A stretch of DNA of 64,000 nucleotides, from NCBI GenBank assembly GCA_965219085.1, contig OZ244720.1, positions 2,624,001-2,688,000 of the forward strand. The letters run 5' to 3'. Made by a program: the position numbers and the translations under genes. Shown here piece after piece: positions 5,066 to 23,454 of this stretch (the stretch's first letter is position 1; each line of letters starts with the position of its first letter). Source of the stretch: Dehalococcoidia bacterium. Its GTDB lineage: Bacteria; Chloroflexota; Dehalococcoidia; UBA2979. The notes under the pieces are model-generated. The model searched no databases, had not been told where the DNA came from, and was given only the letters and a program-made list of their open reading frames with translations.

Positions 5066-5209
5066 CCGAACCACAACGAGAACAAGGAGGCGCGGTGTGT
5101 CGCGCCGTTCGGAGAGAACACCGGAGGTGAGAGATGTGCCGGTAGGCGAACGAGCAGCAGCACCGAGAGACGAACGAGCACACGCAAACGCGAGAGGAGC
5201 GAAACACAA

Positions 5210-5497
5210 GTGGAAGACCTGACTCAGACCATCTCCAACCTGGTGGGCATCCTGCTGGGCGTCGTCGGCGCGATCGGCGTCGGCTTCTTCATCTACGGGT
5301 CCTACCTCTACCTCACCGCCTCGGGCGCACCGCACCAGATGGAGCGCGGCAAGAGCGCGATGATGACCGCTTTGGCCGGCATCGTGCTGGCGATGGTGGC
5401 CTTCGGCGTCGTCGAGCTGGTGATGGACGCCGTCGTCAACCCCGTCGTGGATGTCGACGTCCCCGAGCCCACGGGCGCGGGTTCGTCGGAAGGATAG
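5210..5497 (+). CDS. TrbC/VirB2-like pilin
   Basis: Two hydrophobic helices around YLTASGAPHQMERGKS. Confidence 0.75.
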   Translation: MEDLTQTISNLVGILLGVVGAIGVGFFIYGSYLYLTASGAPHQMERGKSAMMTALAGIVLAMVAFGVVELVMDAVVNPVVDVDVPEPTGAGSSEG

Positions 5498-5506
5498 GGG
5501 GACGTC

Positions 5507-7240
5507 ATGCGAGAGCACGAGGTTCCAACCCACGTGCAGGCCGAGGACCGCGTCCTGCTGTGGTTCACCTTCCCCCAGATCGTGGCGATGACGGCAGTCT
5601 GCGCCCTCGCCTACGGCGTCTACCGCTACGCCCCGCTCGGTCCGTCCGAGGTACGCATGGCCGCGGCCGTGCTCTTCGGACTGGCCGGACTGGCGGTCGT
5701 CGCGGGGCGGATCGGAGGCAGGCGGCTGCCGCTGGTGGCGGCCGACCTGCTGCGGTTCGGACTGGGCGCGCGGCGCTACGCCGGGCCTCCAGCCCAGTTG
5801 GTGCGGAGCGAACCACCCGCAGCCGCGCAGCCAGCATCGAGCGGCGCCAGGCCACGGCGGCTGCTGGCGCGTCGCATACGGCGCGTCGTGCGCCGCCGCT
5901 CAAGGAAGCGGAAGGAGGGTGAGCGCCGCAACGGGCGGATGCCCTTTCGTCCGCACCGCATCTTCGGCAAGCGCCGGCGGCAGGGCGGCGAGGAGCCCGC
6001 TGAGGCGCAACGGCCGGCGACGCAGGAGCGCGGCGGGCGGCGTCTCGGACGCTGGCGCGTGCTCCCGGCGGTCGCCGTCCTGGCGGTCGCCCTCGCCGCC
6101 ACGCCGCTGCTCCCGGCGCTGGCCCAGGAGCCGGGCGGGGAGGGCTGGTTTTCGGAGGAGATCGAGTTCCAGCCTCCGCCGCTGGTCCCCGGACGACGGC
6201 TCTTCGTCGAGGGGCTCACGGTCGGCGGCGAACAGGCAGCGGTCACGCTGCGGGCCGCCACGGACCTGGACCTGACGGTGCGGGCCTACGGCGGTCCGGA
6301 CGGACGGTCGCTCCGCTTCTTCGGGACGGCCGCCCTCGAGCAGGGCGAGCGCAGCGAGTACGACCTGCCGCTGCACGGCCCCTCGCCCTCGCTCGTCTTC
6401 TCCTGGGAGGACGAGCTGGGCCAGGCCGGGGCCGTCAGCCTCGGTGGCGAGCGGCTCCCGTGGCCGCTGCCCGCGGTGGCGGGCGAGCTGTGCGTCCTGC
6501 GCGTCGTCTCGCTCGGCTGGAGCGCGGGCGCCGTCGAGGGGGCGATCAGCTCGGAGTGCGTGAGCACCACCGAGGAAGCGGTCGTTCTCCAGACGGTCGC
6601 CGGGCACGCCGACGTGACCGCGACGGCCCTGCTGGAAGGCGAGGTCGTTGCCGTCACCGGGACCATCACGGTCGCCGGAGACGGCCCTGCGACGAGCGTC
6701 ACGTTTGTCGCCGGCGGCGAGACCCGCTTCCGGCTCCCGGTCGCGGCGGGCGAGGCCGTCCACGCCCTCGCCATCGAGGCGGACCTGGTGGCGTCCCTCA
6801 GCGTCGCCCTGCCGCCGCTCGTGGAGCTCACCCACCACCCGCGGCGCGTCGAGCAACTCACGGAGACGGCGGAGGTGGGCATCCCGGCGTTCGGCGACAC
6901 CGTGACGGAGACGTTCACGGTCCCCAACGAGGACGGCACCGTCACTGAGCACACCGTGACGGCCAGCTGCCATGTCCCCGCGTCGACCGTCCGCCAGGAC
7001 GTCGTCTTCAGCGTCGTCCACCCCGAACGCGTCGAGGCCGAGGTGATGGCGCGGCTACCGCTCGCACGCAGCCGGGATGAGTCGCTTGCCCTGGCGCTCA
7101 GCGTCGGGGCCGACGACCCCTACGTGGCGCTGGCCGTACCCGAGCCCGAGCCGGAGCCCGATCCCGTGACGCAAACACCCGCCGAAGAGGACGAGCTGAG
7201 CGACTGGTTCGAGCAGCTCGGCTGGGAGTGGGTCTGGTGA
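5507..7240 (+). CDS. PrgI/VirB3-like N-terminus fused to a large extracellular beta-rich domain
   Basis: HEVPTHVQAEDRVLLWFTFPQ PrgI-like start with 2 TMs; internal signal-like segment; position upstream of VirB4. Confidence 0.65.
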   Translation: MREHEVPTHVQAEDRVLLWFTFPQIVAMTAVCALAYGVYRYAPLGPSEVRMAAAVLFGLAGLAVVAGRIGGRRLPLVAADLLRFGLGARRYAGPPAQLVRSEPPAAAQPASSGARPRRLLARRIRRVVRRRSRKRKEGERRNGRMPFRPHRIFGKRRRQGGEEPAEAQRPATQERGGRRLGRWRVLPAVAVLAVALAATPLLPALAQEPGGEGWFSEEIEFQPPPLVPGRRLFVEGLTVGGEQAAVTLRAATDLDLTVRAYGGPDGRSLRFFGTAALEQGERSEYDLPLHGPSPSLVFSWEDELGQAGAVSLGGERLPWPLPAVAGELCVLRVVSLGWSAGAVEGAISSECVSTTEEAVVLQTVAGHADVTATALLEGEVVAVTGTITVAGDGPATSVTFVAGGETRFRLPVAAGEAVHALAIEADLVASLSVALPPLVELTHHPRRVEQLTETAEVGIPAFGDTVTETFTVPNEDGTVTEHTVTASCHVPASTVRQDVVFSVVHPERVEAEVMARLPLARSRDESLALALSVGADDPYVALAVPEPEPEPDPVTQTPAEEDELSDWFEQLGWEWVW

Positions 7241-7554
7241 GGCGGCTCACGACCGCCCTGCTACTCGCCGGGGTCGCGCTGGTCACGACCGGCGCGGCCC
7301 CGGCCGAGGAGCGGGCCATGCTCGACGCCTTCGATGAGGCGCTTACCGCGCTGGCCTACGCCGCCGCCGGGGTCTGCGTCTTCGCGATCGCCTGGGCGGG
7401 CGTCCTGCTCATGGCCGACGGTGCCGACGAGCGTGGCGGCGGGCGCGCAAAGAGCGCCGTCTTCCTGGCCGTGGCCGGCCTCGCGCTCGTGCTGTCGGCC
7501 AAGGGCGTGGCTGCCCTGCTGCGCGCAGGCATCGTCCCCATCCCCGTCCCCTGA
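7237..7554 (+). CDS. Second TrbC/VirB2-like pilin
   Basis: Signal peptide plus two hydrophobic helices flanking DGADERGGGRAKS. Confidence 0.65.
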   Translation: MRRLTTALLLAGVALVTTGAAPAEERAMLDAFDEALTALAYAAAGVCVFAIAWAGVLLMADGADERGGGRAKSAVFLAVAGLALVLSAKGVAALLRAGIVPIPVP

Positions 7555-7573
7555 CACCCAGGAGCAGATCCCG

Positions 7574-9874
7574 ATGAGACCACTACTCGAACTCACGAAG
7601 CGCGCGGCGGCGGCCCTGCCAGGCGGGGCCGCCGCCGCGCGGGCGCCCGGAGCCGCCCGCGAGGCCACCTCGCCAGCGACCGAGACCGAAGCGGCCGTTC
7701 CGAAGCTCCCGCCCGGGCTGCCGGTCGCCTTCATGCTCTCCCACCTCGAGGAGGACGGGCCGGTGCGCCTCGATGGCGTCAAGCTCGGCGTCTGCGAGGT
7801 GCTCGGACTCGAGCTGGACGAGCCGAAGCTGGGGGCCTTCGCCGGCGCGCTCAACGCCTGCGACTTCCCGCTCCAACTGCTCGTGCGCCAGCACCCGCCC
7901 GGCCTCGGGAAGCTCCGCGAGGACCTCGAGGAGTCACAGCCGGAGGATCTGCCCCCGCGGACGGAGGCTGCCGCGGGCTCGCTGCGGCGGCTGCTCGCCG
8001 AGCTGGAGCGCCGCGACGGCATCCTCGACCGCCGCTTCTACGCCGTCTGCGAGTTCGAGCGGATTGGCGAGCTGCGGGGCCTGCTGGCGCGGGCCGGACT
8101 CTCCGTCCACCCGCTCGAGGGCCGCCAGTTGCGCATGCTGCTGCTGGCGTCGGCGCTCGGCGGCTCGCCCCGCGAGATCGACGAGGACACGCCCACCGAC
8201 GTCACGGTCAACCGCCGTGACATCCGCATCGGCGATCGCCTCGTGCGCTCCCTGCATCTCGGCAAGTGGCCGCGCTCGCTCTCCCCCGGCTTCCTCCAGA
8301 ACCTGATGTCCACGGGCGCGCCCATGGACCTCTCCCTCCACCTCGGCCCGATCCCCGCCGCGCAGGCAGCGCGCACGCTGGAGTGGCAGAAGGTGCGCTT
8401 CGAGTCGGCGCAGAGCCTCTCCTTCAAGCGGGGGCGCTCGATGTCGTCGGAGGCGGAGATCGCCCTCGAGGATGTGATGCGCCTCCGAGACGAGGTGCAG
8501 CGTGGCAGGGAGCGGCTCTTCCACGCGTCCCTCTCCGTCACGCTCCATGCTGACGACGAGGAGTCGCTCAAGGAGCTGACGCAGCGCGCGAAGGCGCACT
8601 TCGCGGCCTCGCTCGGCAAGCTCGACGCGCTTCCGTTCCGCCAGCGTGAGGGGCTGCTCTCGACGCTCCCGCTCGCGCTCAACGCCGTCGCCGTCTGGCG
8701 CACGCTCGACACCTCGTCGCTGGCGCGCCTGTACCCCTTCTCCCCGCCCGACCTCGACACCCGCGGCGGCAGCCTCTACGGCATCGACATGCGGGCCTCG
8801 TCGCCCGTCGTCTACGACCCCTGGGACGGCACCCACCTCAACGCCAACACGGCGGTGCTCGCGCGCTCGGGCTCGGGCAAGTCCTTCGCAACCAAGCTGG
8901 GCGTGCTGCGCGGCCTCTGCCGCGGTGTCACCGCCTACGTGATCGACCCCGAGGGCGAGTACGCCGACATGGCCCGCGCCGCGGGCGGACGCGTGCTCTC
9001 GCCGGGCGTCGCTGGCGAAGGGATGAACCCCTTCGTTATCGACTCGGGCGACCCCGAGGAGCTACTGCTGCGCATCGGCAGCCTCAGGCGGCTGATCGAG
9101 GTGATGATCGGGGAGTCCCTCGGCGCCGAGCGGCGCGCCGCCCTCGACCACGCCCTCGCCGCCTACTACGCACAGCCGCGCGAGCGCACCGGCTTCGGCG
9201 ACTTTTTCACGTTCCTGAAGGGCGACGAGGCCGACGGCGATCCCGGCCTCGCCAGGCTGCTGCGCCCCTTCGCCACGGGCAGCCTGCGCCACCTGCTCAC
9301 CGACGAGGGTGACGACCTGCTCACCAACGAGGCGCTGGTGACGGTCTTCGACCTGCGGCTGCTGGAGCCGGAGCTGCGCCCCGCCGCGGCGATGGTCTGC
9401 ACCGAGACGGTCTGGGCCGCTGCCGCGCGCGACCCGAAGCCCCGGCTGCTCGTGGTCGACGAGGTGTGGTCGATCATGCAGCACCCCGAGGGCGCGGCCT
9501 TCATGGTCTCGATGGCGAAGCGGGCGCGGAAGCACCGCCTGGGTTTGCAGTTCATCACCCAGGATGTGCAGGACCTGCTCTCCGAGGACCCCTCGCGCGC
9601 CATCACCGGCCACAGCGGGCGCGCTCTGCTCCAGAACGCCGCCTTCAAGCTCCTGCTCCAGCAGGACGCCGCCGCCATCTCAACCGTCGGCGACGCCTTC
9701 GACCTCCCACAGGACCTGCAGCGCTGGCTGCTCTCGTGCCCTCGTGGTGACGGCCTCCTGCTCGCCCGAGGCAACCGCTTCCCGATCCGCATCGAGGCGA
9801 CGCCCGAGGAGGCGGAAGTGATCGAGTGGCGGCCGGGCTCGCACCACCGCAAGGGGGCTGCGGCCAGCGAGTGA
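7574..9874 (+). CDS. virB4: VirB4/TrsE-like conjugal transfer ATPase
   Basis: NANTAVLARSGSGKS Walker A, VIDPEGEY, LLVVDEVW Walker B, RARKHRLGLQFITQDV. Confidence 0.9.
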   Translation: MRPLLELTKRAAAALPGGAAAARAPGAAREATSPATETEAAVPKLPPGLPVAFMLSHLEEDGPVRLDGVKLGVCEVLGLELDEPKLGAFAGALNACDFPLQLLVRQHPPGLGKLREDLEESQPEDLPPRTEAAAGSLRRLLAELERRDGILDRRFYAVCEFERIGELRGLLARAGLSVHPLEGRQLRMLLLASALGGSPREIDEDTPTDVTVNRRDIRIGDRLVRSLHLGKWPRSLSPGFLQNLMSTGAPMDLSLHLGPIPAAQAARTLEWQKVRFESAQSLSFKRGRSMSSEAEIALEDVMRLRDEVQRGRERLFHASLSVTLHADDEESLKELTQRAKAHFAASLGKLDALPFRQREGLLSTLPLALNAVAVWRTLDTSSLARLYPFSPPDLDTRGGSLYGIDMRASSPVVYDPWDGTHLNANTAVLARSGSGKSFATKLGVLRGLCRGVTAYVIDPEGEYADMARAAGGRVLSPGVAGEGMNPFVIDSGDPEELLLRIGSLRRLIEVMIGESLGAERRAALDHALAAYYAQPRERTGFGDFFTFLKGDEADGDPGLARLLRPFATGSLRHLLTDEGDDLLTNEALVTVFDLRLLEPELRPAAAMVCTETVWAAAARDPKPRLLVVDEVWSIMQHPEGAAFMVSMAKRARKHRLGLQFITQDVQDLLSEDPSRAITGHSGRALLQNAAFKLLLQQDAAAISTVGDAFDLPQDLQRWLLSCPRGDGLLLARGNRFPIRIEATPEEAEVIEWRPGSHHRKGAAASE

Positions 9875-9932
9875 CGACCCCTCGGAACCATCAGCCCCAA
9901 CCAACACAGCAACCACGAAAGGGACCCCGGCC

Positions 9933-12539
9933 ATGCGATTCAATCCATTCAAGACCATCCCCAATCGCGAGCCCGTGCTGCTGGCGGTGACGCCGCCGCG
10001 CACGGGCGAGCGCACGCTGCTCGGCGTCGAGAACCTGCTCGGCTCGATCGCCGTGCCCGAGCCCTTTTCGCTCGAACTCGCGGGCGGCGCCGACGGCGTC
10101 ACCCTGCTGGCGCGCTGCCTCGGCGAGCAGGTCGTGCGCGGCCAGATCGCCGCCCACTATCCCCAGGCACGCATCCACCAGCTCCAGCCCGAAGAGGATC
10201 CGCTCCGGCTCCGCGGGGGCGAGCAGGCCTGGAGCATGACCCTGCGCCCGAGCGGACCCGAGTACCTGCCCCTGCGCCTCTTCCGCGACGACGACCTGCT
10301 CGACGCGGGCTCCGACCCGATCCTCGCCCTGCTCGGCGCGCTCTCCGACCTCGAGGAGGACGAGCGCGTCGTCGCGCGGCTGCGGCTGCGCTCGCTCGGT
10401 CCCGACTGGTCGCGGCAGCACCAGGTCAGGGCGCACGAGCGGCCCCAGCCGGAGCGGACCGACTCCTACCAGATCAGCGAGTCGCGCCGCCACCGCGTCG
10501 AGATCGCGGGGGTGGCCGTCCTCGGTGCCGCCGTCGCCGGCGCTGCCCAGGGCTACCGCTGGTGGCAGGCGGGCGAGCAGTGGAAGACGGTCGCGCTCGG
10601 GGCGGGCATCGCCCTCACGCTCGGTGTGGCCGGCTGGGCCTGGGCGCGCTGGCAGCGCGCCCGCAACCGCGTCGTCGACCCCCTCCTGGTCAAGGAGAAG
10701 GTCTCGCGCATCGCCTTCGAGGCGGAGATCGAGGCCGTCGCCGTGCTGCCCGCCGGCGGCACCGAGGAGCGCGCGCGCGACCTGCTCGAGCCGGTGGCGG
10801 CCGCCTACCGCCACTACGACCACCCCGCGGGCGCGCGCCTGCAGGCGGGCGAGGTGCAGCCGCTGATCCCGGACCCGGCGGCGCTGCATCCCTCCCCGCC
10901 CGGCCTCTTCCGGGGGCGCAGCGTGCTCGGCGTGCGCGAGGCGGCGGCGCTCTGGCATCCGCCCGGCGCCGGGGACGAGACGCCGCTCGTCTCCCGTTCC
11001 GGGGCGAAGGTGCTGCTCCCCACGGCGCGCAGCGTCAGGGGCGGGGCGCTCGTCGGCGAGACCACGGCGGGGAGCCCCCGCGAGATCCATTTCCCCGACG
11101 ACCTGCTGCGCCGCCATCACCTCTACGTGGCGCGCACGCGCATGGGCAAGTCGACGCTCATGCAGCACCTCGTTACCCACAGGCTGCGGGAGAAGGCGGC
11201 AGGGGTCGGCGGCGACGCGATCGTCGTCGTCGACCCCCACGCCGACCTCGTCGCCGGCATCCTCGAGCACGTCCCCGAGTCCCTGGTTGGCTCCGTGCGC
11301 CTCGTCGACCTCGCGGGCAGCGGCGGCTACCCCGGCATCAACCTGCTCGACACGCACGTCTTCGCCGACCGCGACCGCACCGCCGACTCGGTCGTGCGCG
11401 TCGCGCGGGGGCTCTGGGAGCAGTGGGGGCCGCGCATGCAGTCGATCCTCGAGCAGACGGTGAAGACGCTGCACGAAGCTAACGCCCACCCCGACACGGC
11501 GGCCGAGGAGCAGAGCACCATCCTCGATGGGCTGCGCCTCCTGTCCGACGACGGCTTCCGCAGCCACGTCCTGGAGCGGGTCTCCGACCCCTTCCTGCTC
11601 GACTGGTGGGCGCGAGACTTCGGTGGCTGGCGGCGCGAGTACCGCGCCGAGGCGCTGGCGCCGGTCCAGACGCGCCTCTCCTACTACGCCTCCTCGAAGC
11701 GGGCGCGAGCGATCCTCGGCCAGGCGCGGTCCACCATCGACCTGCGCCGCACCATCCTCGACGGGGGCGTGCTGCTCGTCTCCACCGCGCAGGGCACCGC
11801 CGGGCGCGACGTCGCCGCGCTCGTGGGCGCGTCGATCCTCAACCTCGTCGATGCCGTCATCCGCGAGCAGGGCGAGCTGCCCCCGGAGCGCAGGCGCGGC
11901 GCGCTCGTCGTCGTCGACGAGATGCAGTCGATGCCGGGCGTCGACTACGAGTCGATGCTCTCGGAGCTGGGCAAGTTCGGGGCCAGCTTCGTGCTCGCCA
12001 CGCAGAGCCTCGCCAAGCTCGCCGATCTCTCACCGACGATGCGCGACACGCTGCTCGCCAACGTGGGCTGTCTCGCCATCTTCCAGGTGGCCGGCTCCGA
12101 CGCGCGCCAGCTCGTCTGGGAGCTCGACCGCGACCGCGTCTCCGAGGAGGATGTCGTCTCCCTGCCCGCGCACCACTGCTACGTGCGCGCGACCGTGGGA
12201 ACGCAGCGCATGCCCGCCTTCTCCATGGAAGTGCGCAAGCCCGACGGAGGCGACCCGGGGCGGGCCTCCCGCATCCGCGCGGACGCGGCGTCCTACCTGC
12301 TGACGGAGGAGGAGATCGCCGCCCGCCAGGCGGAGGGCCGCCGTCGCGTGGAGCAGTGGCGCGAGGCCGGCGAGGCGCTTCGCAACGGCGATGGTTCCGG
12401 GCCGGACGCGGACGCTGCTCCGGGGGAGGGCTCCGATCCGGGCACGGGCGACACCTCCGGGGAAGCAGAGCGCGGGAAGCAGTCGCGCAGCAAGCACTTC
12501 CAGCCGCCCGGCCGCAACTCCGGGAAGGCTGAGCAGTGA
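9933..12539 (+). CDS. virD4: VirD4/TraD-like coupling protein
   Basis: 2 TMs, RHHLYVARTRMGKST, VVDPHADL, VVVDEMQ, LSELGKFGASFVLATQSLAKL. Confidence 0.85.
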   Translation: MRFNPFKTIPNREPVLLAVTPPRTGERTLLGVENLLGSIAVPEPFSLELAGGADGVTLLARCLGEQVVRGQIAAHYPQARIHQLQPEEDPLRLRGGEQAWSMTLRPSGPEYLPLRLFRDDDLLDAGSDPILALLGALSDLEEDERVVARLRLRSLGPDWSRQHQVRAHERPQPERTDSYQISESRRHRVEIAGVAVLGAAVAGAAQGYRWWQAGEQWKTVALGAGIALTLGVAGWAWARWQRARNRVVDPLLVKEKVSRIAFEAEIEAVAVLPAGGTEERARDLLEPVAAAYRHYDHPAGARLQAGEVQPLIPDPAALHPSPPGLFRGRSVLGVREAAALWHPPGAGDETPLVSRSGAKVLLPTARSVRGGALVGETTAGSPREIHFPDDLLRRHHLYVARTRMGKSTLMQHLVTHRLREKAAGVGGDAIVVVDPHADLVAGILEHVPESLVGSVRLVDLAGSGGYPGINLLDTHVFADRDRTADSVVRVARGLWEQWGPRMQSILEQTVKTLHEANAHPDTAAEEQSTILDGLRLLSDDGFRSHVLERVSDPFLLDWWARDFGGWRREYRAEALAPVQTRLSYYASSKRARAILGQARSTIDLRRTILDGGVLLVSTAQGTAGRDVAALVGASILNLVDAVIREQGELPPERRRGALVVVDEMQSMPGVDYESMLSELGKFGASFVLATQSLAKLADLSPTMRDTLLANVGCLAIFQVAGSDARQLVWELDRDRVSEEDVVSLPAHHCYVRATVGTQRMPAFSMEVRKPDGGDPGRASRIRADAASYLLTEEEIAARQAEGRRRVEQWREAGEALRNGDGSGPDADAAPGEGSDPGTGDTSGEAERGKQSRSKHFQPPGRNSGKAEQ

Positions 12540-14146
12540 GGCCGGAGCGCGACCTGCTGCGCCTGCTTGCGGAGATGCCCTTCCTCGACCGGCTGGAGGC
12601 GGCCGCCGTCTCCGGTTGGTCGCGGGGCGCGGTCTACGCCGCGGTGGCCAAGCTGGAGCGTGAGGGGATGGCCGCGGCCGTCCCCCACGCCTCGGAGTTC
12701 ATCGCCCCGACGCAGCGCTACTCCCTCACGGCAGCCGGGCTGCGGCGCCTCGCGGACGCCGAGGGGACCGCCGTGGAGCAGGTGCTGCGCTCGCGGCCGG
12801 TCTCGGGGCGCTCGCGGCGCATCCTGCTGGAGCGTCTCGACGGCGTGGCCGTCACCTACCGCCTCGCCTCGGCGATCGCCGACGCGGCCTGGCCGATCCG
12901 CCTGCGCTGGTACCGGGCGGCACCAATGGACGCCGCCATCGCGCTCCCCGGCGGGCGCACCCTCGCGATCGTCCGCCAGGGCCGCACGACCGAGCGCACG
13001 GCCTTCGCCAAGCGCCTCTGGCGGCTGCGCGAGGGGCCGCGCCCGGGCGCCTACCTGCTGCTTGCACCCGACGGTGTGCGCCTGCGCCGTCTCGCCCGCC
13101 TCATGGCGGAGGCGGGGACGGTCAGCTTCCTCGCGCTGGAGCGCGACGCGGCCGCGGCGCGTGCGGGCGCGCGCATCTGGCGCACTGCGTCCGGGTCGCC
13201 CGCGCTCTCGCTGGACGAAGCGCTCGCCCTCGTCGGGCCGGGCGGCGCCTGGCCCGGCGAGCAGCCGTTGGCGCGGGTCGCGTTGCCTTCCCCGCTGCCG
13301 GACACGGAGCACGGCGCGCTCCCGCTCTGGATGCTCCCCTCCGAGCTGACGCCCGTGGACAAGCGCGCCCTCGGCCTGCTCGCCGACTGGTCCTGGCTTG
13401 CCCGCGAGCCGCTGGGCGCGCTCCTCGGCGTGGGGCGCACGCGGCTGTCGGGCGTGCTCGGGCGGCTGGACGGGCTCGGCCTCGTCCGCGCCCCGCGCGA
13501 CGGCCGGCTCGCGCTCTCGGACCGCGGGCTGGCGCTGCTCGCGCGCCGCGACCGCGCCTCGGAGGGGGACGCGAGGCGGCGCTGGAGCGCGGCGCCGCTG
13601 GACCCGCGGGCGCCGCTCGCCTGGCGCAACGTCTCCGGCAGGCGCAGCCGCCAGCTCCTTCGCAACCTCGACCACACCGCGGCCGTGCACGGCTTCCTCG
13701 CGGCGCTGACGGCGCAGGCGCGTGAGCGCGGCTGGGAGGTGGCGCAGCTCGACCCGCCCCACCGCGCGTCGCGCTACTTCCGCCACGGCGGCGGCCTGCG
13801 CTCCGTCCACCCCGACGCCTTCGGTGTCCTCCGCCGCGGCGATGCCACACGGGCCTTCTTCCTCGAGTGGGAGCGCCGCGCCGTGCGGCCCTCCACGATG
13901 GCCGCCCGCCTCGCCCCCTACCTGCGCTACTACGCCTCGCAGCGCCCCACCGACGACCACGGCGTCCGCCCCGCCGTGCTGGTCGTCTTCGACGACGAAC
14001 TCGCCGCCCACCACTTCCTGCGCGTCGCGCGGAGGGAGCTGGACCGCGCCCGCGTCGAGTTGCCCCTGCGCGTCTCGCACCGCGCGCTCATCGAACGGGA
14101 AGGGCCGCTCGAGTGCCGCTGGCGCTCTCCCGCAGGCGGCTCCTGA
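12536..14146 (+). CDS. Replication-relaxation family protein (putative relaxase), tandem wHTH + PD-(D/E)XK domains
   Basis: LDHTAAVH...VHPDAFGVL...FFLEWER...RLAPYLRY..VLVVF; coupled to the coupling-protein gene. Confidence 0.8.
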   Translation: MRPERDLLRLLAEMPFLDRLEAAAVSGWSRGAVYAAVAKLEREGMAAAVPHASEFIAPTQRYSLTAAGLRRLADAEGTAVEQVLRSRPVSGRSRRILLERLDGVAVTYRLASAIADAAWPIRLRWYRAAPMDAAIALPGGRTLAIVRQGRTTERTAFAKRLWRLREGPRPGAYLLLAPDGVRLRRLARLMAEAGTVSFLALERDAAAARAGARIWRTASGSPALSLDEALALVGPGGAWPGEQPLARVALPSPLPDTEHGALPLWMLPSELTPVDKRALGLLADWSWLAREPLGALLGVGRTRLSGVLGRLDGLGLVRAPRDGRLALSDRGLALLARRDRASEGDARRRWSAAPLDPRAPLAWRNVSGRRSRQLLRNLDHTAAVHGFLAALTAQARERGWEVAQLDPPHRASRYFRHGGGLRSVHPDAFGVLRRGDATRAFFLEWERRAVRPSTMAARLAPYLRYYASQRPTDDHGVRPAVLVVFDDELAAHHFLRVARRELDRARVELPLRVSHRALIEREGPLECRWRSPAGGS

Positions 14147-14271
14147 CCACGCCCAGAGCGTTCCCGCTCGCCACCTGGCCGCACGGATCGACCGCCGCGC
14201 GCGGGGCCTCGGCGCACGCGGCCGGGCGGCCGGCGGCAGGGGGTTACGCTAGACGGGGCAGTGCATGGGTA

Positions 14272-14290
14272 AGAACTGGCGTTCTATGAT
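14272..14290 (+). promoter_or_regulatory. LexA (SOS) box abutting a TATGAT -10 element
   Basis: AGAAC-TGGC-GTTCT matches the GAAC-N4-GTTC box of Gram-positives and Dehalococcoides; TATGAT at 14285-14290. Confidence 0.75.
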
Positions 14291-14322
14291 GGATCGGGCG
14301 GGGCCGGCCGAGGAGCGCAGAC

Positions 14323-14691
14323 ATGACCGTCGACCACGGCTACCGCTGGAAGGAGTTCGGCGCCCGCATCCGCGCGGCCCGCGAGCGCGCCGGCTTCACG
14401 CAGAAGCGCCTCGGCGAGCTCGTCGGCGTGCGCGCGCACACCGTCTGGTGCTGGGAGGCGGGGCGGATGAAGCCCAACCACGCGAACCTCGCGGAAATCG
14501 CCTACCAGTGCGCGACGAGCGTGGCGCTGCTTGAGGGACGCGACGTGGTCGAGGCGGAGTTGCTGAGAGAAGCCGAAGTCTTGTTCCGCGACGCCGTCGC
14601 CGGCCTCCCCATGGAGGACATCGAGTCGATCCGCAACTACATCCGCTTCGTCAAGTCGGAGCGGCGCAGGCAACGCCGCGCCGGGAGCTGA
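14323..14691 (+). CDS. XRE-family HTH regulator
   Basis: FGARIRAARERAGFTQKRLGELVGV..HTVWCWEAGRMKP; GAGGAG RBS. Confidence 0.9.
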   Translation: MTVDHGYRWKEFGARIRAARERAGFTQKRLGELVGVRAHTVWCWEAGRMKPNHANLAEIAYQCATSVALLEGRDVVEAELLREAEVLFRDAVAGLPMEDIESIRNYIRFVKSERRRQRRAGS

Positions 14692-14722
14692 ACCGGGCGC
14701 AGCGGCGCGCGAGGGGCTGCCG

Positions 14723-15013
14723 CTACGCCGCCCGCCCGTCAGCCGCGGGCGGCGATTCCTCCTCCGAAGCCGATCCGGCGATGGCATGTCCCGCCGCCGT
14801 GAGGGTCACCGCGCGCGCCAGGCGGGGCGCACGCACGATCAGGCCCGCGCGCTCGCACGCGTCCAGCCAGTGCGCCACGTTGGAGGTGGAGGACAGCCCG
14901 GTCGCCGTCCTCAACTCGCGCACGCTCGGCGCATAGCCGTGCCTGGCCCGGTAGCGGGCGATCGCCCCGACCACCGCGCGCATCCGCTCCCGTCGCCGCC
15001 TCGAGGCGCTCAC
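14723..15013 (-). CDS. LexA DNA-binding-domain-only protein
   Basis: IARYRARHGYAPSVRELRTATGLSSTSNVAHWLDACERAGLIVRAPRLARAV; no C-terminal peptidase; GTGA overlap with upstream gene. Confidence 0.8.
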   Translation of the reverse strand: MSASRRRRERMRAVVGAIARYRARHGYAPSVRELRTATGLSSTSNVAHWLDACERAGLIVRAPRLARAVTLTAAGHAIAGSASEEESPPAADGRAA

Positions 15014-15393
15014 AGGGCGGCGCCCTTCGCGAGCGGCAGTGCCGCTCCCTGCCCGAACTCGCCGGGCGCGCCGCCGCGTACTGCCAGCTCCCACGAGCGG
15101 ACCAGACTCTCCGCTGGCGCCCCGGCCTCGTCGACGAGTAGCGCCGCGCCTGGCAGCAGGCAGGGCAGCAGGTTCCGTTCGAGGGCGAAGACGACCAGCG
15201 CGTAGAGATGGCCGGAATCGGGCGTCGTCCCGTTCCTCCAGCGCCGCAGCATGCGCGTGTCGACGCGCAGCGCGCGCGCCAGTCCCCGCCAGCTCAGCCC
15301 GGCCTCCCGCCGCAGGCGGTCGAGGCGCTCGGGGAAGTCCGGCGGAAAGCGTGACGGCTCAACGTGGTAGACGTGCTGCTGGCGGCGTCCCAT
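15010..15393 (-). CDS. XRE-like HTH protein
   Basis: FPERLDRLRREAGLSWRGLARALRVDTRMLRRWRNGTTP. Confidence 0.8.
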   Translation of the reverse strand: MGRRQQHVYHVEPSRFPPDFPERLDRLRREAGLSWRGLARALRVDTRMLRRWRNGTTPDSGHLYALVVFALERNLLPCLLPGAALLVDEAGAPAESLVRSWELAVRGGAPGEFGQGAALPLAKGAAL

Positions 15394-15686
15394 CAGCGCC
15401 TCCGCTCCGGGCGCACGACGATCAGCTCCTCGCCCAGCAGTGCGCCCAGGCCCCCGGGCACCCGCGTCGCGAGCCGCACCAGCGAGAGCATCGCCCCGCC
15501 GCCGGGCGAGGCGCCCTGCCGCCAGCGCCAGAGCTGGCGGGGGTCCACGCCCAGGCAGACCGCCATCCGCTCCCAGGGCAGCCCGGTCAGTTCCTTGATC
15601 GCCACGAGCCGCGCCGCGAAGTCCTCGGGCAGGAGCGCCACGCCGGGCAGGAAGGCCGTCTCGGGGGCCGTCGGCGCCCTACTCAT
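15393..15686 (-). CDS. XRE-like HTH protein, paralogue of neighbour
   Basis: FAARLVAIKELTGLPWERMAVCLGVDPRQLWRWRQGASP. Confidence 0.75.
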   Translation of the reverse strand: MSRAPTAPETAFLPGVALLPEDFAARLVAIKELTGLPWERMAVCLGVDPRQLWRWRQGASPGGGAMLSLVRLATRVPGGLGALLGEELIVVRPERRR

Positions 15687-15942
15687 CGGGCTCATCCTCG
15701 TCGGACTCATCGGGGTGCACCACGTAGAAGAGATCGTCGAAGCGCGCGTGCAGCACGCGCAGCATGCTCTCGCGCAGCCCGGCGGAGGCGCGCCGGCGCC
15801 CGTTCAGCACCAGCGAGATGTAGCCCGAGGAGCGGCCGACCGCTCGCGCGAAGCCGTTCTGCGTCAGGTTGAGGCGCACCATTCGCTCCCAGACGGCCTC
15901 GGCCCTGACCTCGACCGTGGGGCGGGCGACTCTACTCGGCAT
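15679..15942 (-). CDS. Cro/XRE-like HTH protein
   Basis: LNLTQNGFARAVGRSSGYISLVLNGRR; GGGGAGGG RBS. Confidence 0.8.
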   Translation of the reverse strand: MPSRVARPTVEVRAEAVWERMVRLNLTQNGFARAVGRSSGYISLVLNGRRRASAGLRESMLRVLHARFDDLFYVVHPDESDEDEPDE

Positions 15943-16138
15943 GCTCGCCCTCCCCGGCGGCCGCATCGCGGTCCGCTTCGTCGGACGGAAACGCGCCGTT
16001 GGGCCCCGTGCCGCCGCGGGCGGTCGAGGCGAGGTGGGCGCGCACGATCAGCCGCGCGAGGGCGCGCAGGCCGCGCAGCCGCTGCTCGTCCTGCTCCTTG
16101 GTGAGTTGCCGGGGGGTCGTCGTCCGGGGGGTTCGCAT
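15932..16138 (-). CDS. Small hypothetical protein
   Basis: LTKEQDEQRLRGLRALARLIVRAHL helix; first gene of the coupled leftward operon. Confidence 0.55.
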   Translation of the reverse strand: MRTPRTTTPRQLTKEQDEQRLRGLRALARLIVRAHLASTARGGTGPNGAFPSDEADRDAAAGEGEHAE

Positions 16139-16368: not shown

Positions 16369-18042
16369 ATGCCCGACCAACAGCCCGATCTCAAGCCCGC
16401 CGCCCTCTACGCCCGCGTCTCCAGCGACCGCCAGGACGTCGACCTCTCCGTCTCCGCCCAGCTGCGCGCGCTCCGCGACTTCGCCGAGAAGAACAATTAC
16501 CTTGTCGTCCGCGAGTATGTCGACGAGGCCGAGAGCGGGCGCGTCGCCGACCGCCCGCAGTTCCGGCAGATGCTCGATGCGGCCGGCAGCGACGACGCGC
16601 CCTTCGAGGAGATCCTCGTCTGGAAGTTCTCGCGCTTCACCCGCAAGCGCGAGCACGCCGTCGCCTTCAAGTCGATGCTGCGCCGCCGCGGCATCCGCGT
16701 CGTCTCCATCACCGAGCACGCCGACGACTCCCCCACCGGCAAGCTCATGGAGGCGATCATCGAGAGCGTCGACGAGTTCTATTCGGAGAACCTGGCGCAG
16801 GAGGTCATGCGCGGTCTGCGCGAGTCGGCTTCACGCGGCTTCTGGGTCGCCCCGCGCGCGCCTTACGGCTACCGCAGGGTCCAGGTGCAGGACGGCCCTA
16901 GGACGCGACCGAAGCTGGAGTTGAATCCGCCCGCCGACGGCATGGTCCGCCGCATCTTCGAGATGGCTCTGCAGGACCGGAGCGTCCTCGAGATCAGCAA
17001 GACGTTCAACGCCGAGGGCATCCCCAGCCCGGCAGGCAAGCGCTGGAACAAGACGACTATCCACCAGATGCTCGCCAACGAGACCTATACGGGAACCTTG
17101 CTCTGGGGCGTCACGGCCAAAGACGGGCTCCCACCCGTGCGTGTCGAGGATGCGTTCCCCGCCATCGTCTCCCGGAAGGAGTTCCAGGAGGTCGCGGGCC
17201 TGCTGCGTGCGAAGGCGCCGGCGCAGGTACATCCGCGTCGCGCCGGGAGCCCATATCTGCTGAGCGGGCTCGTGAAGTGCCGGCGCTGCCGCCGAGCGCT
17301 CACGGCAGCCGAGGCGAAGAGCGGCAAGTACACCTACTACGTCTGCCAGTCGCTGTTGAAGCGAGGCAGCGGTACCTGCGAGACCCCGCGGCTCAACGCG
17401 CAGCACTTCGAGCGGCTGATCATCGAGCAGATTCGGGAGCACATCCTCACCGAGTCCAACATCCGCGACCTCGTGCGGCTCGTTGACGAGGAGATGGACG
17501 GCGTAGCGCGCGAGGAGCGTGCGAAACTCGAGACCACCGAGGCCGAGCTGGCCGAGGTGCGCAGCAAGATGGACCGGCTGTGGCACGCCGTCGAGACCTC
17601 CGATCTGGAGGTCAACGACATCTTGCCCCGCCTGAGGCAGCACCAGGAGCGCCAGGAGCGCCTCGAGACGGCGGCGGCGGATGCGCGCAGGGCGCTCTCG
17701 GAGCGCCGCGTGGCGCTGGACAGCGTCGAGACCATCACCGCCTTCGCTCGAGAGATGAGCGAGTTCCTGCGGACCAGTAAACTCACCGAGTCGAAGACGT
17801 TCATCCGCTCCTTTGTGAAGGAGATCGCCGTCAAGCCCGGGACGGCGACGATCCGGTACACCATCCCGACGCCGCCGGACAGCCCCATCGGTGGGGGAGA
17901 TGCTGCGGAGATCGAGTTGCCCGAGGCAGTTCGCAGTACAGTCAGCTATGGCTGCCGGGGGAGGAATCGAACCTCCATCAAGGGATCCAAAGTCCCCTGT
18001 GCTACCGTTGCACCACCCGGCACCGCTGCGGATCCAGTCTAG
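16369..18042 (+). CDS. Large serine recombinase (integrase)
   Basis: ALYARVSSDRQ catalytic motif, WKFSRFTR, PYGY recombinase domain, YLLSGLVKCRRC...YYVC Zn ribbon, coiled coil. Confidence 0.95.
   Translation: MPDQQPDLKPAALYARVSSDRQDVDLSVSAQLRALRDFAEKNNYLVVREYVDEAESGRVADRPQFRQMLDAAGSDDAPFEEILVWKFSRFTRKREHAVAFKSMLRRRGIRVVSITEHADDSPTGKLMEAIIESVDEFYSENLAQEVMRGLRESASRGFWVAPRAPYGYRRVQVQDGPRTRPKLELNPPADGMVRRIFEMALQDRSVLEISKTFNAEGIPSPAGKRWNKTTIHQMLANETYTGTLLWGVTAKDGLPPVRVEDAFPAIVSRKEFQEVAGLLRAKAPAQVHPRRAGSPYLLSGLVKCRRCRRALTAAEAKSGKYTYYVCQSLLKRGSGTCETPRLNAQHFERLIIEQIREHILTESNIRDLVRLVDEEMDGVAREERAKLETTEAELAEVRSKMDRLWHAVETSDLEVNDILPRLRQHQERQERLETAAADARRALSERRVALDSVETITAFAREMSEFLRTSKLTESKTFIRSFVKEIAVKPGTATIRYTIPTPPDSPIGGGDAAEIELPEAVRSTVSYGCRGRNRTSIKGSKVPCATVAPPGTAADPV
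17949..18022 (-). tRNA. tRNA-Gln: tRNA-Gln(TTG), ICE integration target
   Basis: TGCCGGGTGGTGCAACGGTAGCACAGGGGACTTTGGATCCCTTGATGGAGGTTCGATTCCTCCCCCGGCAGCCA folds into a cloverleaf with encoded CCA. Confidence 0.95.
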
Positions 18043-18126
18043 GCAACCGGCCCCTCCCGGCGATAGCCTGATAGGTGAAGGCGGCACGCTCGAGCTGCCG
18101 TCGCACTGCGCATGGGAGGCCTCACC

Positions 18127-19260
18127 ATGACCGAGTTGCAGGCCGAGGCACAGCAGCGCCTGGACGAGTTGGAGTCGAAGTTCGAAGCCCTGGCGGGGCA
18201 CTTCCTCGGCTACCCGACCAACCAGGACTTCGACTACTCGGCGCTGCTGCCGTTCCTGAGCTACAACGTGAACAATGTCGGCGATCCGTTTCACGAGAGC
18301 GGCTTCAGCACCAACACCCACGACATCGAGCGCGAGGTGATCGGCCACTTCGCGGACTTGATGCGCCTCCACGACGACGAGGCGTGGGGCTACGTCACCA
18401 ACGGCGGCACCGAGGGCAACATGTACGGCATGTTCCTCGCCCGCGAGCTGTTCCCGGACGGCATCGTCTACTTCTCCGAGGACACCCACTACAGCATCCT
18501 CAAGATCACGCGCGTCCTCAGGACCCGCAACATCATGATCAAGAGCCAGACGAGCGGCGAGATCGACTACGACGACCTCTACGAGTCAATCCGCATCAAC
18601 CGCGATGTGCCTGTGATCTTCATGGCCAACATCGGCACCACCATGAAGGGCGCCATCGACGACGCGCGACGCGTGCGCGAGATCTTCGAAGCCCTCGCCA
18701 TCACGCAGCACTACATCCACGGCGATGCGGCGCTCAGCGGGATGATCCTGCCGTTCGTCGACGACCCGCAGCCGCACACCTTCGCCGACGGCTTCGACAG
18801 CATCTCGATCAGCGGCCACAAGCTCATCGGCGCGCCGATCCCCTGCGGGGTCGTGCTTTCCCGCAAGGAGTACGTCGCGCGCATCGCCCGATCGATCGAG
18901 TACATCGGGGCGATGGACACCACGCTCACGGGCTCGCGCAACGGCATCACCCCGCTGATGCTGTGGCTCGCCTGGGAGCGTTACGGTATCGAGGGGTTCC
19001 GCGAGCTCGTCGCGAACATGCTCGGCGTCGCCGCGTACGCCGTCGAGCGCTTCAACAGCCTCGGGATCCCGGCGTGGCGCAACCGCAACTCGGCGACTGT
19101 CGTGTTCCCGCGTCCGCCCGCCGACATCATCGAGAAGTGGCAGCTCGCGCCGTACGAGGCCATCGCGCACCTGATCACGATGGGCCACGTGACCCGCGAG
19201 CAGATCGACCAACTCGGCGACGAGCTCGCGGCGGCGCGCAGGGTCAGCCGGTCCGCCTGA
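18127..19260 (+). CDS. hdcA: PLP-dependent histidine decarboxylase (group II; histidine/serine decarboxylase clade)
   Basis: GYPTN, NNVGDPF, WGYVTNGGTEGN, THYS, NIGTTMKGAIDD, HGDAAL, SISGHK(PLP). Confidence 0.85.
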   Translation: MTELQAEAQQRLDELESKFEALAGHFLGYPTNQDFDYSALLPFLSYNVNNVGDPFHESGFSTNTHDIEREVIGHFADLMRLHDDEAWGYVTNGGTEGNMYGMFLARELFPDGIVYFSEDTHYSILKITRVLRTRNIMIKSQTSGEIDYDDLYESIRINRDVPVIFMANIGTTMKGAIDDARRVREIFEALAITQHYIHGDAALSGMILPFVDDPQPHTFADGFDSISISGHKLIGAPIPCGVVLSRKEYVARIARSIEYIGAMDTTLTGSRNGITPLMLWLAWERYGIEGFRELVANMLGVAAYAVERFNSLGIPAWRNRNSATVVFPRPPADIIEKWQLAPYEAIAHLITMGHVTREQIDQLGDELAAARRVSRSA

Positions 19261-20685: not shown

Positions 20686-21507
20686 CTACCGCCCCTTGAA
20701 CTGCGGCGCGCGACGCTCCGAGAACGCCGCGACCGCCTCGCCCATGTCCTCGGTCTTCATCGCCAGCCCCTCGGCGGCGAGGGAGAACGGGATCACATCC
20801 TGCGAGATGCGCTCGAGCGAGCGGTTGATCGCGCGCTTCGTGGTGCGGATCGCGTAGGGCGCGCCCGCCGCGATGCGCGACGCCATCGCGATCGCCTCGT
20901 CGAGCAGGTCCTCGTCGTCGTAGACGCGGAACACGAGGCCGAGCCGCTCGGCGGTCTCGGCGTCGACGTGCTCGCCGGTGAAGAGGTAGTACTTCGCGGC
21001 CTGCGGGCCGACCAACTGCGGCCACAGCACCGCCCCGCCGTCGCCGGCCGTGATGCCGACCACGACGTGCGTGTCGCCGATGCGGATGCTGCGCCCGGCG
21101 AGCACGATGTCGCCGAGCAGCGCGACCGTCGCGCCGAGACCCAGTGCGTAGCCCTTGACCGCCGTGATCACCGGCTTGTCGAGCCGCAGGAAGCCGTCGA
21201 CGATGTTGCGCGCTTCGCCCTCGAGGCCGAGCGGCAGCGCGGGGTCGAGCGAGGGGTCGCCGAAGCTCGCCTCGACGTCGGCGCCGGAGCAGAACGAGCG
21301 CCCGGCGCCGGTGAGGACCACCGCTCGCACATCCTCGTCGTCCTGGATGTCGCCCGGCAACTGCGCAAGTTCGCTGTGCATCGGCCCGCCGACGGCGTTG
21401 TGACGCTCGGGTCGGTTGAGCGTGACGACGGCGACACCGTCGTCGCGCTTGTCGATGAGCATGACCTCGTAGTTGCTCTGGTCGAGGGTCCGGGGCGGGC
21501 GAGCCAT
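20686..21507 (-). CDS. Enoyl-CoA hydratase/isomerase family protein
   Basis: TLNRPERHNA, FCSGADV, KPVITAVKG. Confidence 0.9.
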   Translation of the reverse strand: MARPPRTLDQSNYEVMLIDKRDDGVAVVTLNRPERHNAVGGPMHSELAQLPGDIQDDEDVRAVVLTGAGRSFCSGADVEASFGDPSLDPALPLGLEGEARNIVDGFLRLDKPVITAVKGYALGLGATVALLGDIVLAGRSIRIGDTHVVVGITAGDGGAVLWPQLVGPQAAKYYLFTGEHVDAETAERLGLVFRVYDDEDLLDEAIAMASRIAAGAPYAIRTTKRAINRSLERISQDVIPFSLAAEGLAMKTEDMGEAVAAFSERRAPQFKGR

Positions 21508-21650
21508 GGGCGTGTGTTTCCTTTCACGATCGCGTGCCCAATCGATGCTACATGGGCGGGCGAAGGCTCGCGGGCGGGTGTACCATCCGCATCGTTATCT
21601 CCAGGGCAGGGGCCGCCGACATCCTCGCGCCGGGGCTTGGGGGAGCGCGC

Positions 21651-22352
21651 ATGGCTGGCGGCGTACCGAGTCACGGGCCGTGGTGCAGCACGCAGACGTA
21701 TCCGACGCGATGTGTCGTATGCGGTGACGATGTCTTCCATTTCCGATGCACCTGCGGATCGAGTGTCCTCTTCGACCATCTCGGCGACCCATGGCCGATC
21801 CACCGGGACGACTCGCTGCCCTACCAGCGCAAGCTTGAGATCGTGGCGGCGAAGATCGGCGGCAAGGATGCAGCCGCGCGCTACCTCGAGACCCAGATGA
21901 TGACCGGCACCGTCGATGCCGCCTCCGGGCGGCGCGTCGAGCCGACATGGTGGCGGGAGGTGAAGCCGCCGCCACATCCGCCTCTGCCCGATGAGCCCGC
22001 CCGCGAGATCGTCCGGATGGACCCCTACGCCGGGGCAGCCGAGGACGTGATGGGCGTGGTCCGCGACCTCTTCCGGGACGTTGACGTGTACCGCCGACTC
22101 GGGCTCCCGGAGACATCCGTCTCGGCCGCCGCGCTCGACGAACTGGGCGAGGGCCGGTTCGCCCAAATCACCGTGCACAACACGGCCATCGGCGAACCGG
22201 ACATCGAGAGCTACACGTTCTTCATCCGCGCGCGGCGGATTGCGGGGCTCGGCGTCCGCCGCGGGCACCTCGTCCATTGCTCGCTGCGAGGCGTCTCCGT
22301 GGTGGAACGCGATCCCGTCTGGCTGTGCGACGACATCGAGTGGCCGATCTAG
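21651..22352 (+). CDS. Hypothetical Cys/His-rich Zn-ribbon protein with OB-like C-terminus
   Basis: HGPWC..CVVC..CTC..LFDHLGDPWPIH; GGGGAG RBS. Confidence 0.65.
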   Translation: MAGGVPSHGPWCSTQTYPTRCVVCGDDVFHFRCTCGSSVLFDHLGDPWPIHRDDSLPYQRKLEIVAAKIGGKDAAARYLETQMMTGTVDAASGRRVEPTWWREVKPPPHPPLPDEPAREIVRMDPYAGAAEDVMGVVRDLFRDVDVYRRLGLPETSVSAAALDELGEGRFAQITVHNTAIGEPDIESYTFFIRARRIAGLGVRRGHLVHCSLRGVSVVERDPVWLCDDIEWPI

Positions 22353-22371
22353 GCTGCTCCCCACGGCTCCC

Positions 22372-22607
22372 CCACCCAGGTGCGAGGATCCCGGCGCTGC
22401 CGAGCAGCCGCGCGAGGTTGCGCGGGCGCACGCCGTCGCCAAGCCCTCGCACCGCGTCGACGACCGCCGTGCGGCCGTTCGCAGTCAGCGTGCGGTCCGT
22501 GAGATCGTCGAACCTGGCCTCGAGCTCGGCGGGGGAGAGCGGGCGCTCCGGGTCGCCCTTCGCGCCCTCGACGTACACACGCAGCGTGCGGCCGTCCGTC
22601 AGTTCGT
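22372..22607 (-). pseudogene. Diverged 3' fragment of an MmgE/PrpD gene
   Basis: ELTDGRTLRVYVEGAKGDPERPLSPAELEARF..LARLLGSAGILAPG aligns with the C-terminus of 23455-24864. Confidence 0.8.
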
Positions 22608-22704
22608 GGGCGAGCCATGGGCGTGTGTTTCCTTTCACGATCGCGCCGAGATGCTACGCGCGGGACCCTCTACGGCCCTCTCCCGCGACTTGAATCGTGC
22701 CCCG

Positions 22705-23379: not shown

Positions 23380-23454
23380 CGATCACCTCCCATTCCCCTG
23401 GCAGAAGGGGCAGCGGAGTCCCGAGCATGCCGAGGGCCTCGGCGCGGGCGCGGT

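Follow-up and report, generated by a model that had tools for sequence, protein, structure and literature searches.

In the stretch of DNA analysed here, a window of 64,000 nucleotides from a Dehalococcoidia bacterium (genome positions 2624001-2688000 of a 3.3-Mb single-contig assembly), the open reading frame (ORF) of a large serine integrase has no stop codon ahead of a tRNA-Gln(TTG) gene on the opposite strand, and reads antisense through all of it. The explanation that we hold to be probable is that the integrase belongs to an integrative conjugative element (ICE) inserted at the tip of this tRNA gene, and that the attachment site of the element (attP) lies inside the 3' end of the integrase gene. 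A conserved tail and its stop codon lie on the other side of attP, and from this it follows that the gene would be complete only on the circular element.

To make the proposal concrete, consider the element as a circle. The integrase ORF would then continue across the P' half-site of attP for 16 codons to a stop of its own. Integration would part these last 16 codons from the gene and move them to the far left end of the element, probably genome 2564952-2565000, about 77 kb away. At the right end it would fuse the gene to the antisense of the tRNA, here for 29 codons, and the P arm would give the tRNA its last four bases (GCCA).

The integrase gene and its overlap with tRNA-Gln

A single ORF occupies the region and ends in ...STVSYGCRGRNRTSIKGSKVPCATVAPPGTAADPV, followed by a TAG stop at 18040-18042 (coordinates of the features are collected in Table 1). 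The tRNA gene that it traverses is, according to ARAGORN, the sole tRNA-Gln(TTG) gene in the whole genome. Codon 528 (GGC) begins at 17950, and codons 528-557 cover the entire tRNA-Gln together with 17 nt of its 5' flank, in antisense. A first-pass annotation of this DNA had described the last ~30 codons as the reverse complement of tRNA-Gln and its 5' flank, with the stop just beyond, and the ORF list and ARAGORN agree with that description. The sequence from 17949 onward is common to relatives without the element, and the tRNA-Gln sequence is identical to that in their empty sites. When the crossover is placed at the first bases of codon 529, as argued below, codons 529-557 would therefore be host DNA. 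No terminator-like site was found between the integrase gene and the tRNA, and nothing was found in a promoter scan of the locus; neither scan is tuned to this phylum. The integrase mRNA may run antisense to the tRNA, as the first-pass annotation supposed.

Pfam finds in the protein, in this order, the domains Resolvase (PF00239, residues 11-157, 1.3e-31), Recombinase (PF07508, residues 192-280, 7.1e-19) and Zn_ribbon_recom (PF13408, residues 297-356, 5.1e-12), and the best full-length match in the PDB is the SPbeta integrase (E = 6e-13). Judged by these domains, the enzyme is a large serine recombinase. The first-pass annotation had likened it to att-split tyrosine integrases, of which the Mx8/SSV1 type was considered here and rejected, since the tyrosine recombinase fold is absent and only serine-recombinase domains are present; the parallel survives as an analogy.

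Anatomy of the attachment site

A motif of 16 nt beginning at 17929 is found again elsewhere in the genome, in both orientations. At genome 2564926-2564975, after a frameshifted paralogue of the integrase, two copies of it face each other and form a 50-bp palindromic junction, in which two inverted and nearly identical 24-bp half-sites flank a central TG. The left half of this junction equals window 17929-17952 except for one base. We read the junction as the joint of two tandem elements, which would have the structure of attP, and window 17929-17952 as the corresponding P half-site. The last four bases of this half-site, TGGC, are the discriminator base and CCA of the tRNA.

The position of the crossover can be narrowed by comparing the different kinds of site. 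The empty site (in the relative L002 and others), the attL-type sites in which host flank meets a P' arm (genome 2538028 and 566572, with matching sites in sister genomes), the attR of the window and the palindromic junction have only one identity in common, the 6 bp TGGCTG. Because the TG at 17953-17954, tRNA nt 71-72, corresponds to the centre of symmetry of the junction and also falls within the shared TGGCTG, we infer that the crossover occurs there. The B' half-site that this placement implies, in the acceptor stem and T arm, is identical in sequence to the relatives' unoccupied tRNA-Gln. The element would then supply only the last four bases of the tRNA (GCCA), and the tRNA would therefore stay intact. 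The earlier suggestion that the att site lies within the integrase gene is in this way supported, with the P half-site at 17929-17952 and a crossover deduced from symmetry and shared identity.

The site has the features that mark a serine integrase, namely short att sites, inverted half-sites around a 2-bp crossover and the lack of a long direct repeat. A displaced tRNA fragment was sought in a direct-repeat search of window 1-30000 and with blastn-short of 17901-18060 against the genome, and none was found. This fits a serine recombinase and rules out a tRNA duplication of the tyrosine type, which was rejected as a candidate for that reason.

Between genome 2564976 and 2641929 there is no other P'-like motif. 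The left end of the element is assigned to the palindromic junction on this ground, so that the window element probably starts there and is about 77 kb long. Public contigs (Logan, all short) from four runs were compared with window 16900-18900: one 405-nt piece matches 17574-17978 without difference, and one 293-nt piece begins at 17956. No joint or loose end occurs at 17953, and the pieces are uninformative on excision either way.

Three further observations concern occupied and formerly occupied sites. The left flank of the relative L002 maps to genome 2533415-2534801. Between its end and the outermost attL-type site lie ~3.2 kb (genome 2534801-2538028), which may be a further decayed element. 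In two sister genomes, at loci L004 (genome G003) and L005 (genome G008), a P half-site is kept beside tRNA-Gln(TTG) with no integrase similarity upstream; such sites look like what deleted elements would leave behind. A large serine recombinase-like ORF that is unrelated (27% identity) lies at genome 2591753-2590221, inside the putative 77-kb element, and may be part of a nested element.

The probable tail of the circular form

P' arms were gathered by a sequence motif, the pattern of which fixed the P' arm and the F codon and left the residues after it free. In the set from the same genus the motif occurs in 16 of 19 genomes, with 37 distinct instances, and in other genera of the class it occurs in 59 of 401 genomes, with 30 instances. 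A stop codon in the integrase frame is found at one fixed position, 16 codons past the G codon, in 19 of the 37 genus instances (TAG 10, TGA 7, TAA 2). Five further instances stop one codon earlier in the +1 frame, and every other stop position in the other two frames is used at most twice. In the other genera the stop occurs at the same position in 18 of 30 instances, and no stop position in the other two frames is used by more than three of the 30. TAG and TGA serve as the stop in both sets, TAA in the genus set only.

In the other genera the tail ahead of this stop reads T-V-L-R-T-F-x-W-E-V-x-(L/I). V is kept in 18 of 18 sequences although three codons are used for it, W in 17 of 18, and E in 14 of 18 with both of its codons. 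The mean entropies of the first, second and third codon positions, over the six codons after the F codon, are 0.77, 0.47 and 1.22, a pattern of the coding type. On balance, these comparisons suggest that the tail is a real, selected coding end that is present only with an intact attP.

The genome itself holds three natural versions of the gene end, two integrated copies and the palindromic junction, which have different tails after the same G codon (Table 1). It had been proposed from the window sequence that integrated and excised forms encode different C-termini, and this is what is found: 29 host codons follow in the window, and a 16-codon tail would be encoded at the far left end. That the attP form might encode the same tail, the finding that would have spoken against the proposal, is contradicted by the attP-type tail, which differs. 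Of the distal att site that the first-pass annotation had suggested looking for, the P' side was located (probably genome 2564952-2565000) and its 16-codon tail translated.

Among 60 P'-motif loci scanned, two have an upstream ORF of more than 300 aa, and only L140 has an integrase upstream of the P' arm. A natural attP-form homologue, L074 (543 aa, 65% identical to the window protein), was modelled by AlphaFold2 with an alignment of 51 rows (A1). The model has a mean predicted local distance difference test score (pLDDT) of 71.7. Long helices at residues 343-481, between the zinc ribbon and the last beta-hairpin, indicate that the coiled-coil insertion in the zinc-ribbon domain is present, as predicted by the model, and the last confident parts are the hairpin 482-496 and a short strand 512-516.

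Layout in the family

Relatives of the window integrase were taken as the best 80 of 591 found in a genome scan (62-87% identity), from metagenome-assembled genomes of Dehalococcoidia (Chloroflexota). They are kin, so that counts of loci are not counts of independent trials. At 55 of the 80 loci a tRNA gene on the opposite strand abuts the integrase ORF, and these tRNAs have the identities Ala (15 loci), Ile (9), Arg (8), Val (6), Gln (4), Met (4), Lys (4), Glu (3) and Leu (2). The IRYTIP motif of the integrase lies 80 nt from the tRNA 3' end in 54 of these 55 loci and 77 nt from it in the remaining one. None of the 55 ORFs stops ahead of the tRNA; the stop falls within the tRNA in 32 and past it in 23, and the tails after the crossover vary in length from 2 to 216 codons. 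Because relatives' ORFs stop either inside or beyond the tRNA, the full read-through of tRNA-Gln in the window is, by this comparison, incidental. The P arms of 78 relatives all end in TGG(T/C). Of the remaining 25 loci, two are truncated at a contig end, 13 carry another recombinase gene that converges on the first, and ten are of other kinds, including attP-like joints.

How the reading frame behaves on its way into the att site was examined over the 84 nt after IRYTIP in 79 sequences (78 loci and the window; 72 distinct 84-mers). In-frame stops occur in none of the 79; of the other two frames, one has stops in 64 of these sequences and the other in 43. For the first 20 codons after IRYTIP the entropy is low at codon positions 1 and 2 and high at position 3, which is conservation of the protein type, and for the eight P-arm codons the same measure gives conservation of the DNA type. 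In the window protein this border falls at codon 520, and the P half-site beyond it is conserved as DNA. From the absence of in-frame stops and from this entropy pattern, it appears that translation must run into the att site in every member of the family.

In one close relative, L014 (87% identity), a stop codon lies exactly at the crossover and gives a tail of 0 codons (locus position ~3057); the adjoining DNA is not called a tRNA by ARAGORN.

A separate observation concerns the 13 of 80 loci that lack a tRNA and have instead the gene of a second large serine recombinase, in tail-to-tail convergence on the same site (L019, L024, L045, L050, L059, L061, L071, L076, L078, L080, L085, L088 and L089; locus position ~3050-3130). 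The second recombinase is 44-55% identical to the window integrase over the longest tblastn match. Its own nearly constant half-site is the opposite arm, and in all 13 loci its YxxP motif lies 60 nt from the crossover. Both ORFs cross the site into each other's antisense, and the end of the second gene has a loose resemblance to the antisense of a tRNA acceptor and T arm. The convergent pair could be an attP with two integrases, a tail-to-tail tandem or a case of target mimicry.

The element, its paralogues and the host flank

Upstream of the integrase the window contains genes of a probable conjugative element (Table 1), and we regard it as likely that the ORF is the integrase at the right end of an ICE. 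The conjugation-gene matches cover the part of the element that falls within the window; most of the putative 77 kb lies outside it, and so does the putative left boundary. Four small helix-turn-helix (HTH) genes lie between the relaxase-like gene and the integrase, and they may encode regulators or a directionality factor. On the host side, the decarboxylase gene that follows is in synteny with tRNA-Gln at 12 loci, whether or not the relative has the element. Further into the host flank there is a 232-nt direct repeat with 82% identity (22375-22606 and 23473-23704) and a perfect 38-nt repeat at 21497 and 22608, ~1.1 kb apart; the direct repeats in 21497-23704 suggest tandemly duplicated host-flank genes.

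At least four further copies of this integrase family are present in the genome, in states that range from intact to a C-terminal remnant (Table 1).

Table 1. Features of the integrase locus, of the element and its host flank, and of the paralogous gene copies (window coordinates unless marked as genome).
Feature	Coordinates	Strand	Basis
Large serine recombinase (integrase) ORF, integrated-state form, 557 aa	16369..18042	+	ORF list, Pfam
Codons 1-520, element-encoded, conserved as protein, including the linker after IRYTIP (codons 501-520)	16369..17928	+	Entropy, alignment A1 (51 sequences)
Putative P half-site of attP, 24 bp, codons 521-528	17929..17952	+	Palindromic junction, relatives' P arms
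Putative crossover dinucleotide TG, tRNA nt 71-72, first two bases of codon 529	17953..17954	.	
Putative B' half-site, host tRNA acceptor stem and T arm	17955..17978	.	Analogy with 24-bp half-sites
Host-derived ORF end, codons 529-557, then TAG	17955..18042	+	Sequence, ORF list
tRNA-Gln(TTG), intact	17949-18022	-	ARAGORN
Right-hand part of probable conjugative element	5066..16047	.	Pfam scan, ORF list based on third-position GC content (GC3)
Type IV secretion system (T4SS) pilin	5066-5497		Pfam
VirB4/TraC-like ATPase	7241-9874		Pfam
Coupling-protein-like (TrwB-like) ATPase	9822-12539		Pfam
Replic_Relax protein (relaxase-like)	12533-14146		Pfam
Four small HTH genes between relaxase-like gene and integrase	14290-15966	three on opposite strand	Pfam
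Pyridoxal phosphate (PLP)-dependent decarboxylase gene, host flank	18112..19260	+	Pfam, synteny
Intact paralogue, 89% identical, at tRNA-Gln(CTG)	genome 744775-746409		
Frameshifted paralogue at tandem junction	genome 2563370-2564949		
Paralogue in three pieces at another attP-like joint	genome 838738-837192		
C-terminal remnant running into tRNA-Arg(CCG)	genome 145986-146447		
Tail of window copy, 29 codons after the G codon	stop 18040-18042, host DNA		
Tail of 89%-identical paralogue, 11 codons after the G codon	stop inside tRNA-Gln(CTG)		
Tail of palindromic-junction copy, WPKKTVLRTFELSVAL, 16 codons after the G codon	stop genome 2564998-2565000		

Weighing the explanations

Several results weigh against the proposal that the gene ends on the far side of attP. 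The circular form, its attP junction and the empty site of this strain were not observed, the public contigs being uninformative here. The left end of this copy is placed solely by the absence of another P'-like motif in the interval given above, and the empty site of L002 does not align base for base at the junction with the sequence left of the outermost attL-type site. The kinship of the relatives makes the counts of loci overstate their independence. As regards the tail, 18 of the 37 genus instances of P' and 12 of the 30 instances in other genera have no stop at the fixed position, and the tail entropies within the genus are flat (0.90, 0.88 and 1.00). Finally, residues 521-543 of the L074 model have pLDDT values below 50, which argues against a folded tail; only three of the 51 alignment rows cover the tail, so that the evidence from the model for disorder of the att-encoded residues in the monomer is weak.

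With the architecture taken as given, its meaning can be understood in different ways. One is that it results from neutral compaction: attP happens to overlap the end of the gene, the residues past approximately codon 520 are a dispensable, disordered appendix in all forms of the protein, and the stop merely limits run-on translation on the circle. We take this account seriously, even though we would not bet on it. It accords with the low confidence of the model from residue 521 onward, with the DNA-type conservation of the P-arm codons, with the arbitrary nature of the tRNA-derived tails and with the lack of a third-position excess in the tail entropy within the genus. It does not explain why, in the wider sample, the W, E, V and L/I positions past the P' half-site are conserved with synonymous variation, or why the position of the stop is exact while the stop codon itself varies.

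A regulatory switch is another way to understand the same architecture, and one that we think rather unlikely. Here the native tail would control the enzyme, so that the circle makes a form that is proficient in integration or short-lived, and the integrated element makes one with changed directionality, activity or stability; convergent transcription of the tRNA may in addition cut the message short, and stop-less mRNA would then be the source of much of the integrated-form protein. In favour of a switch, the tail and its stop are conserved across genera in a coding-type pattern, the linker into attP is invariant in length and conserved as protein, and the scan between gene and tRNA gave no terminator-like site. 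The same idea was raised for the recombinase DsiB by McMurdie et al. (2011; PMC3146451). Against it, the argument is drawn entirely from sequence, the tail is predicted to be disordered, and an enzyme without the tail must still catalyse excision, if the elements move. Moreover, when integrated tails vary from 2 to 216 codons, there is no single property of the integrated form on which selection could act. A more specific version, which we consider doubtful, has the 16-residue tail as a self-contained integrase switch: its loss would flip activity, directionality or stability, without or besides a separate directionality factor, and stop-less messages from convergent tRNA transcription would further reduce the amount of integrase when the element is integrated.

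Loss of the stop through faulty sequencing, which the first-pass annotation had allowed for, through faulty assembly or through mutation of a dead element is practically out of the question, since, for all that decayed copies exist in this genome (2563370-2564949 and 838738-837192), the window ORF is intact, 55 of 55 tRNA-abutting relatives in many assemblies read openly into the tRNA, no in-frame stop occurs in the 79 sequences, and the 405-nt match in the public contigs is without difference.

Returning to an integrase gene with attP inside its 3' end, we think it most likely that the integrated tail is an incidental by-product, and most likely also that the native tail is functional for the circular-form enzyme. 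It could be hypothesized further that the enzyme made after integration is an altered one, less active, less stable or changed in directionality.

Implications

Serine integrases are valued as tools for genome engineering because the direction of their reaction is controlled. A recombination event that rewrites the C-terminus of the very enzyme that carries it out would, if true, be a different kind of directionality control. Members of the family use tRNA genes of nine or more amino-acid identities as targets, apparently replacing only the last four bases and leaving the tRNA intact. For annotation, it means that in integrated copies of these integrases the stop codon and C-terminus as called differ from the native ones. 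A bare overlap between a recombinase gene and its att site had already been reported for DsiB in 2011; what is new here is the conserved native tail and the fixed geometry.

Comparison with known systems

In the available text of a 2017 review (PMC5704250), tRNA 3' ends are given as targets for tyrosine integrases only, and in that of a 2015 database paper the tRNA-gene niche is described as unknown for serine integrases. Our search of the literature, in which subscription journals were largely uncovered, found no family of tRNA-targeting serine integrases, and no attP-spanning serine integrase besides DsiB.

The nearest precedent is DsiB, a serine recombinase of ~540 aa in the ssrA islands of Dehalococcoides, described by McMurdie et al. 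(2011, BMC Genomics 12:287, PMC3146451). According to the same text, these islands are inserted in the T loop of the tmRNA gene with a 20-bp direct repeat. The 3' end of the DsiB gene always overlaps the att site, and its stop is found only outside the island, even inside ssrA or in the next island (PMC3146451). The C-termini are divergent and the true stop was left unclear, and the gene was thought to be fully functional perhaps only on the circle or beside another island (PMC3146451).

We find the DsiB layout reproduced in genome G038, where the 3' end of the tmRNA gene and an ORF of 541 aa share 68 nt. The window integrase is 26% identical over 498 aa to this tmRNA-overlapping homologue, which stands in here for DsiB itself. 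The two systems are alike in that both have a large serine recombinase, from the same bacterial class, the gene of which overlaps att at its 3' end and has no stop inside the element; ssrA islands occur in tandem arrays, in likeness to the tandem joint described above. They differ in their targets, which are ssrA with a 20-bp repeat in the one case and tRNA genes, with a probable acceptor-stem crossover at nt 71-72 and 6 bp of identity, in the other. The window element, unlike the ssrA islands, carries conjugation genes, and for its family a conserved circular-form tail and stop can be identified. The module of DsiA, RecF-like, ParB-like and Mom-like genes was not seen beside the window integrase, where the ORFs just upstream match HTH families only (Pfam), and no second resolvase was found by Pfam among the 13 window ORFs scanned.

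The phage-type serine integrases (Bxb1, phiC31, A118/LI and SPbeta SprA) resemble the window enzyme in their Resolvase, Recombinase and zinc-ribbon domains with a long helical insertion, and in an attP of ~50 bp with inverted half-sites around a central dinucleotide. Their known targets are protein-coding genes or intergenic sites, with attP placed outside the int ORF; in the window family it lies inside.

An attP inside the integrase gene is also known from IntP/IntX of the Myxococcus phage Mx8 and from the archaeal integrases of the SSV1 type, where integration changes or partitions the protein. These are tyrosine recombinases, with long core identities that duplicate part of the tRNA. They are like the window integrase in the position of attP and unlike it in the family of the enzyme, which is tyrosine there and serine here. 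In the integration-dependent immunity of mycobacteriophage BPs and its relatives, attP reportedly lies inside the repressor gene, recombination is said to be carried out by a tyrosine integrase, and the C-termini of the free and integrated forms are said to differ. The logic is the same, with the difference that the split gene is that of the repressor in BPs and that of the integrase here.

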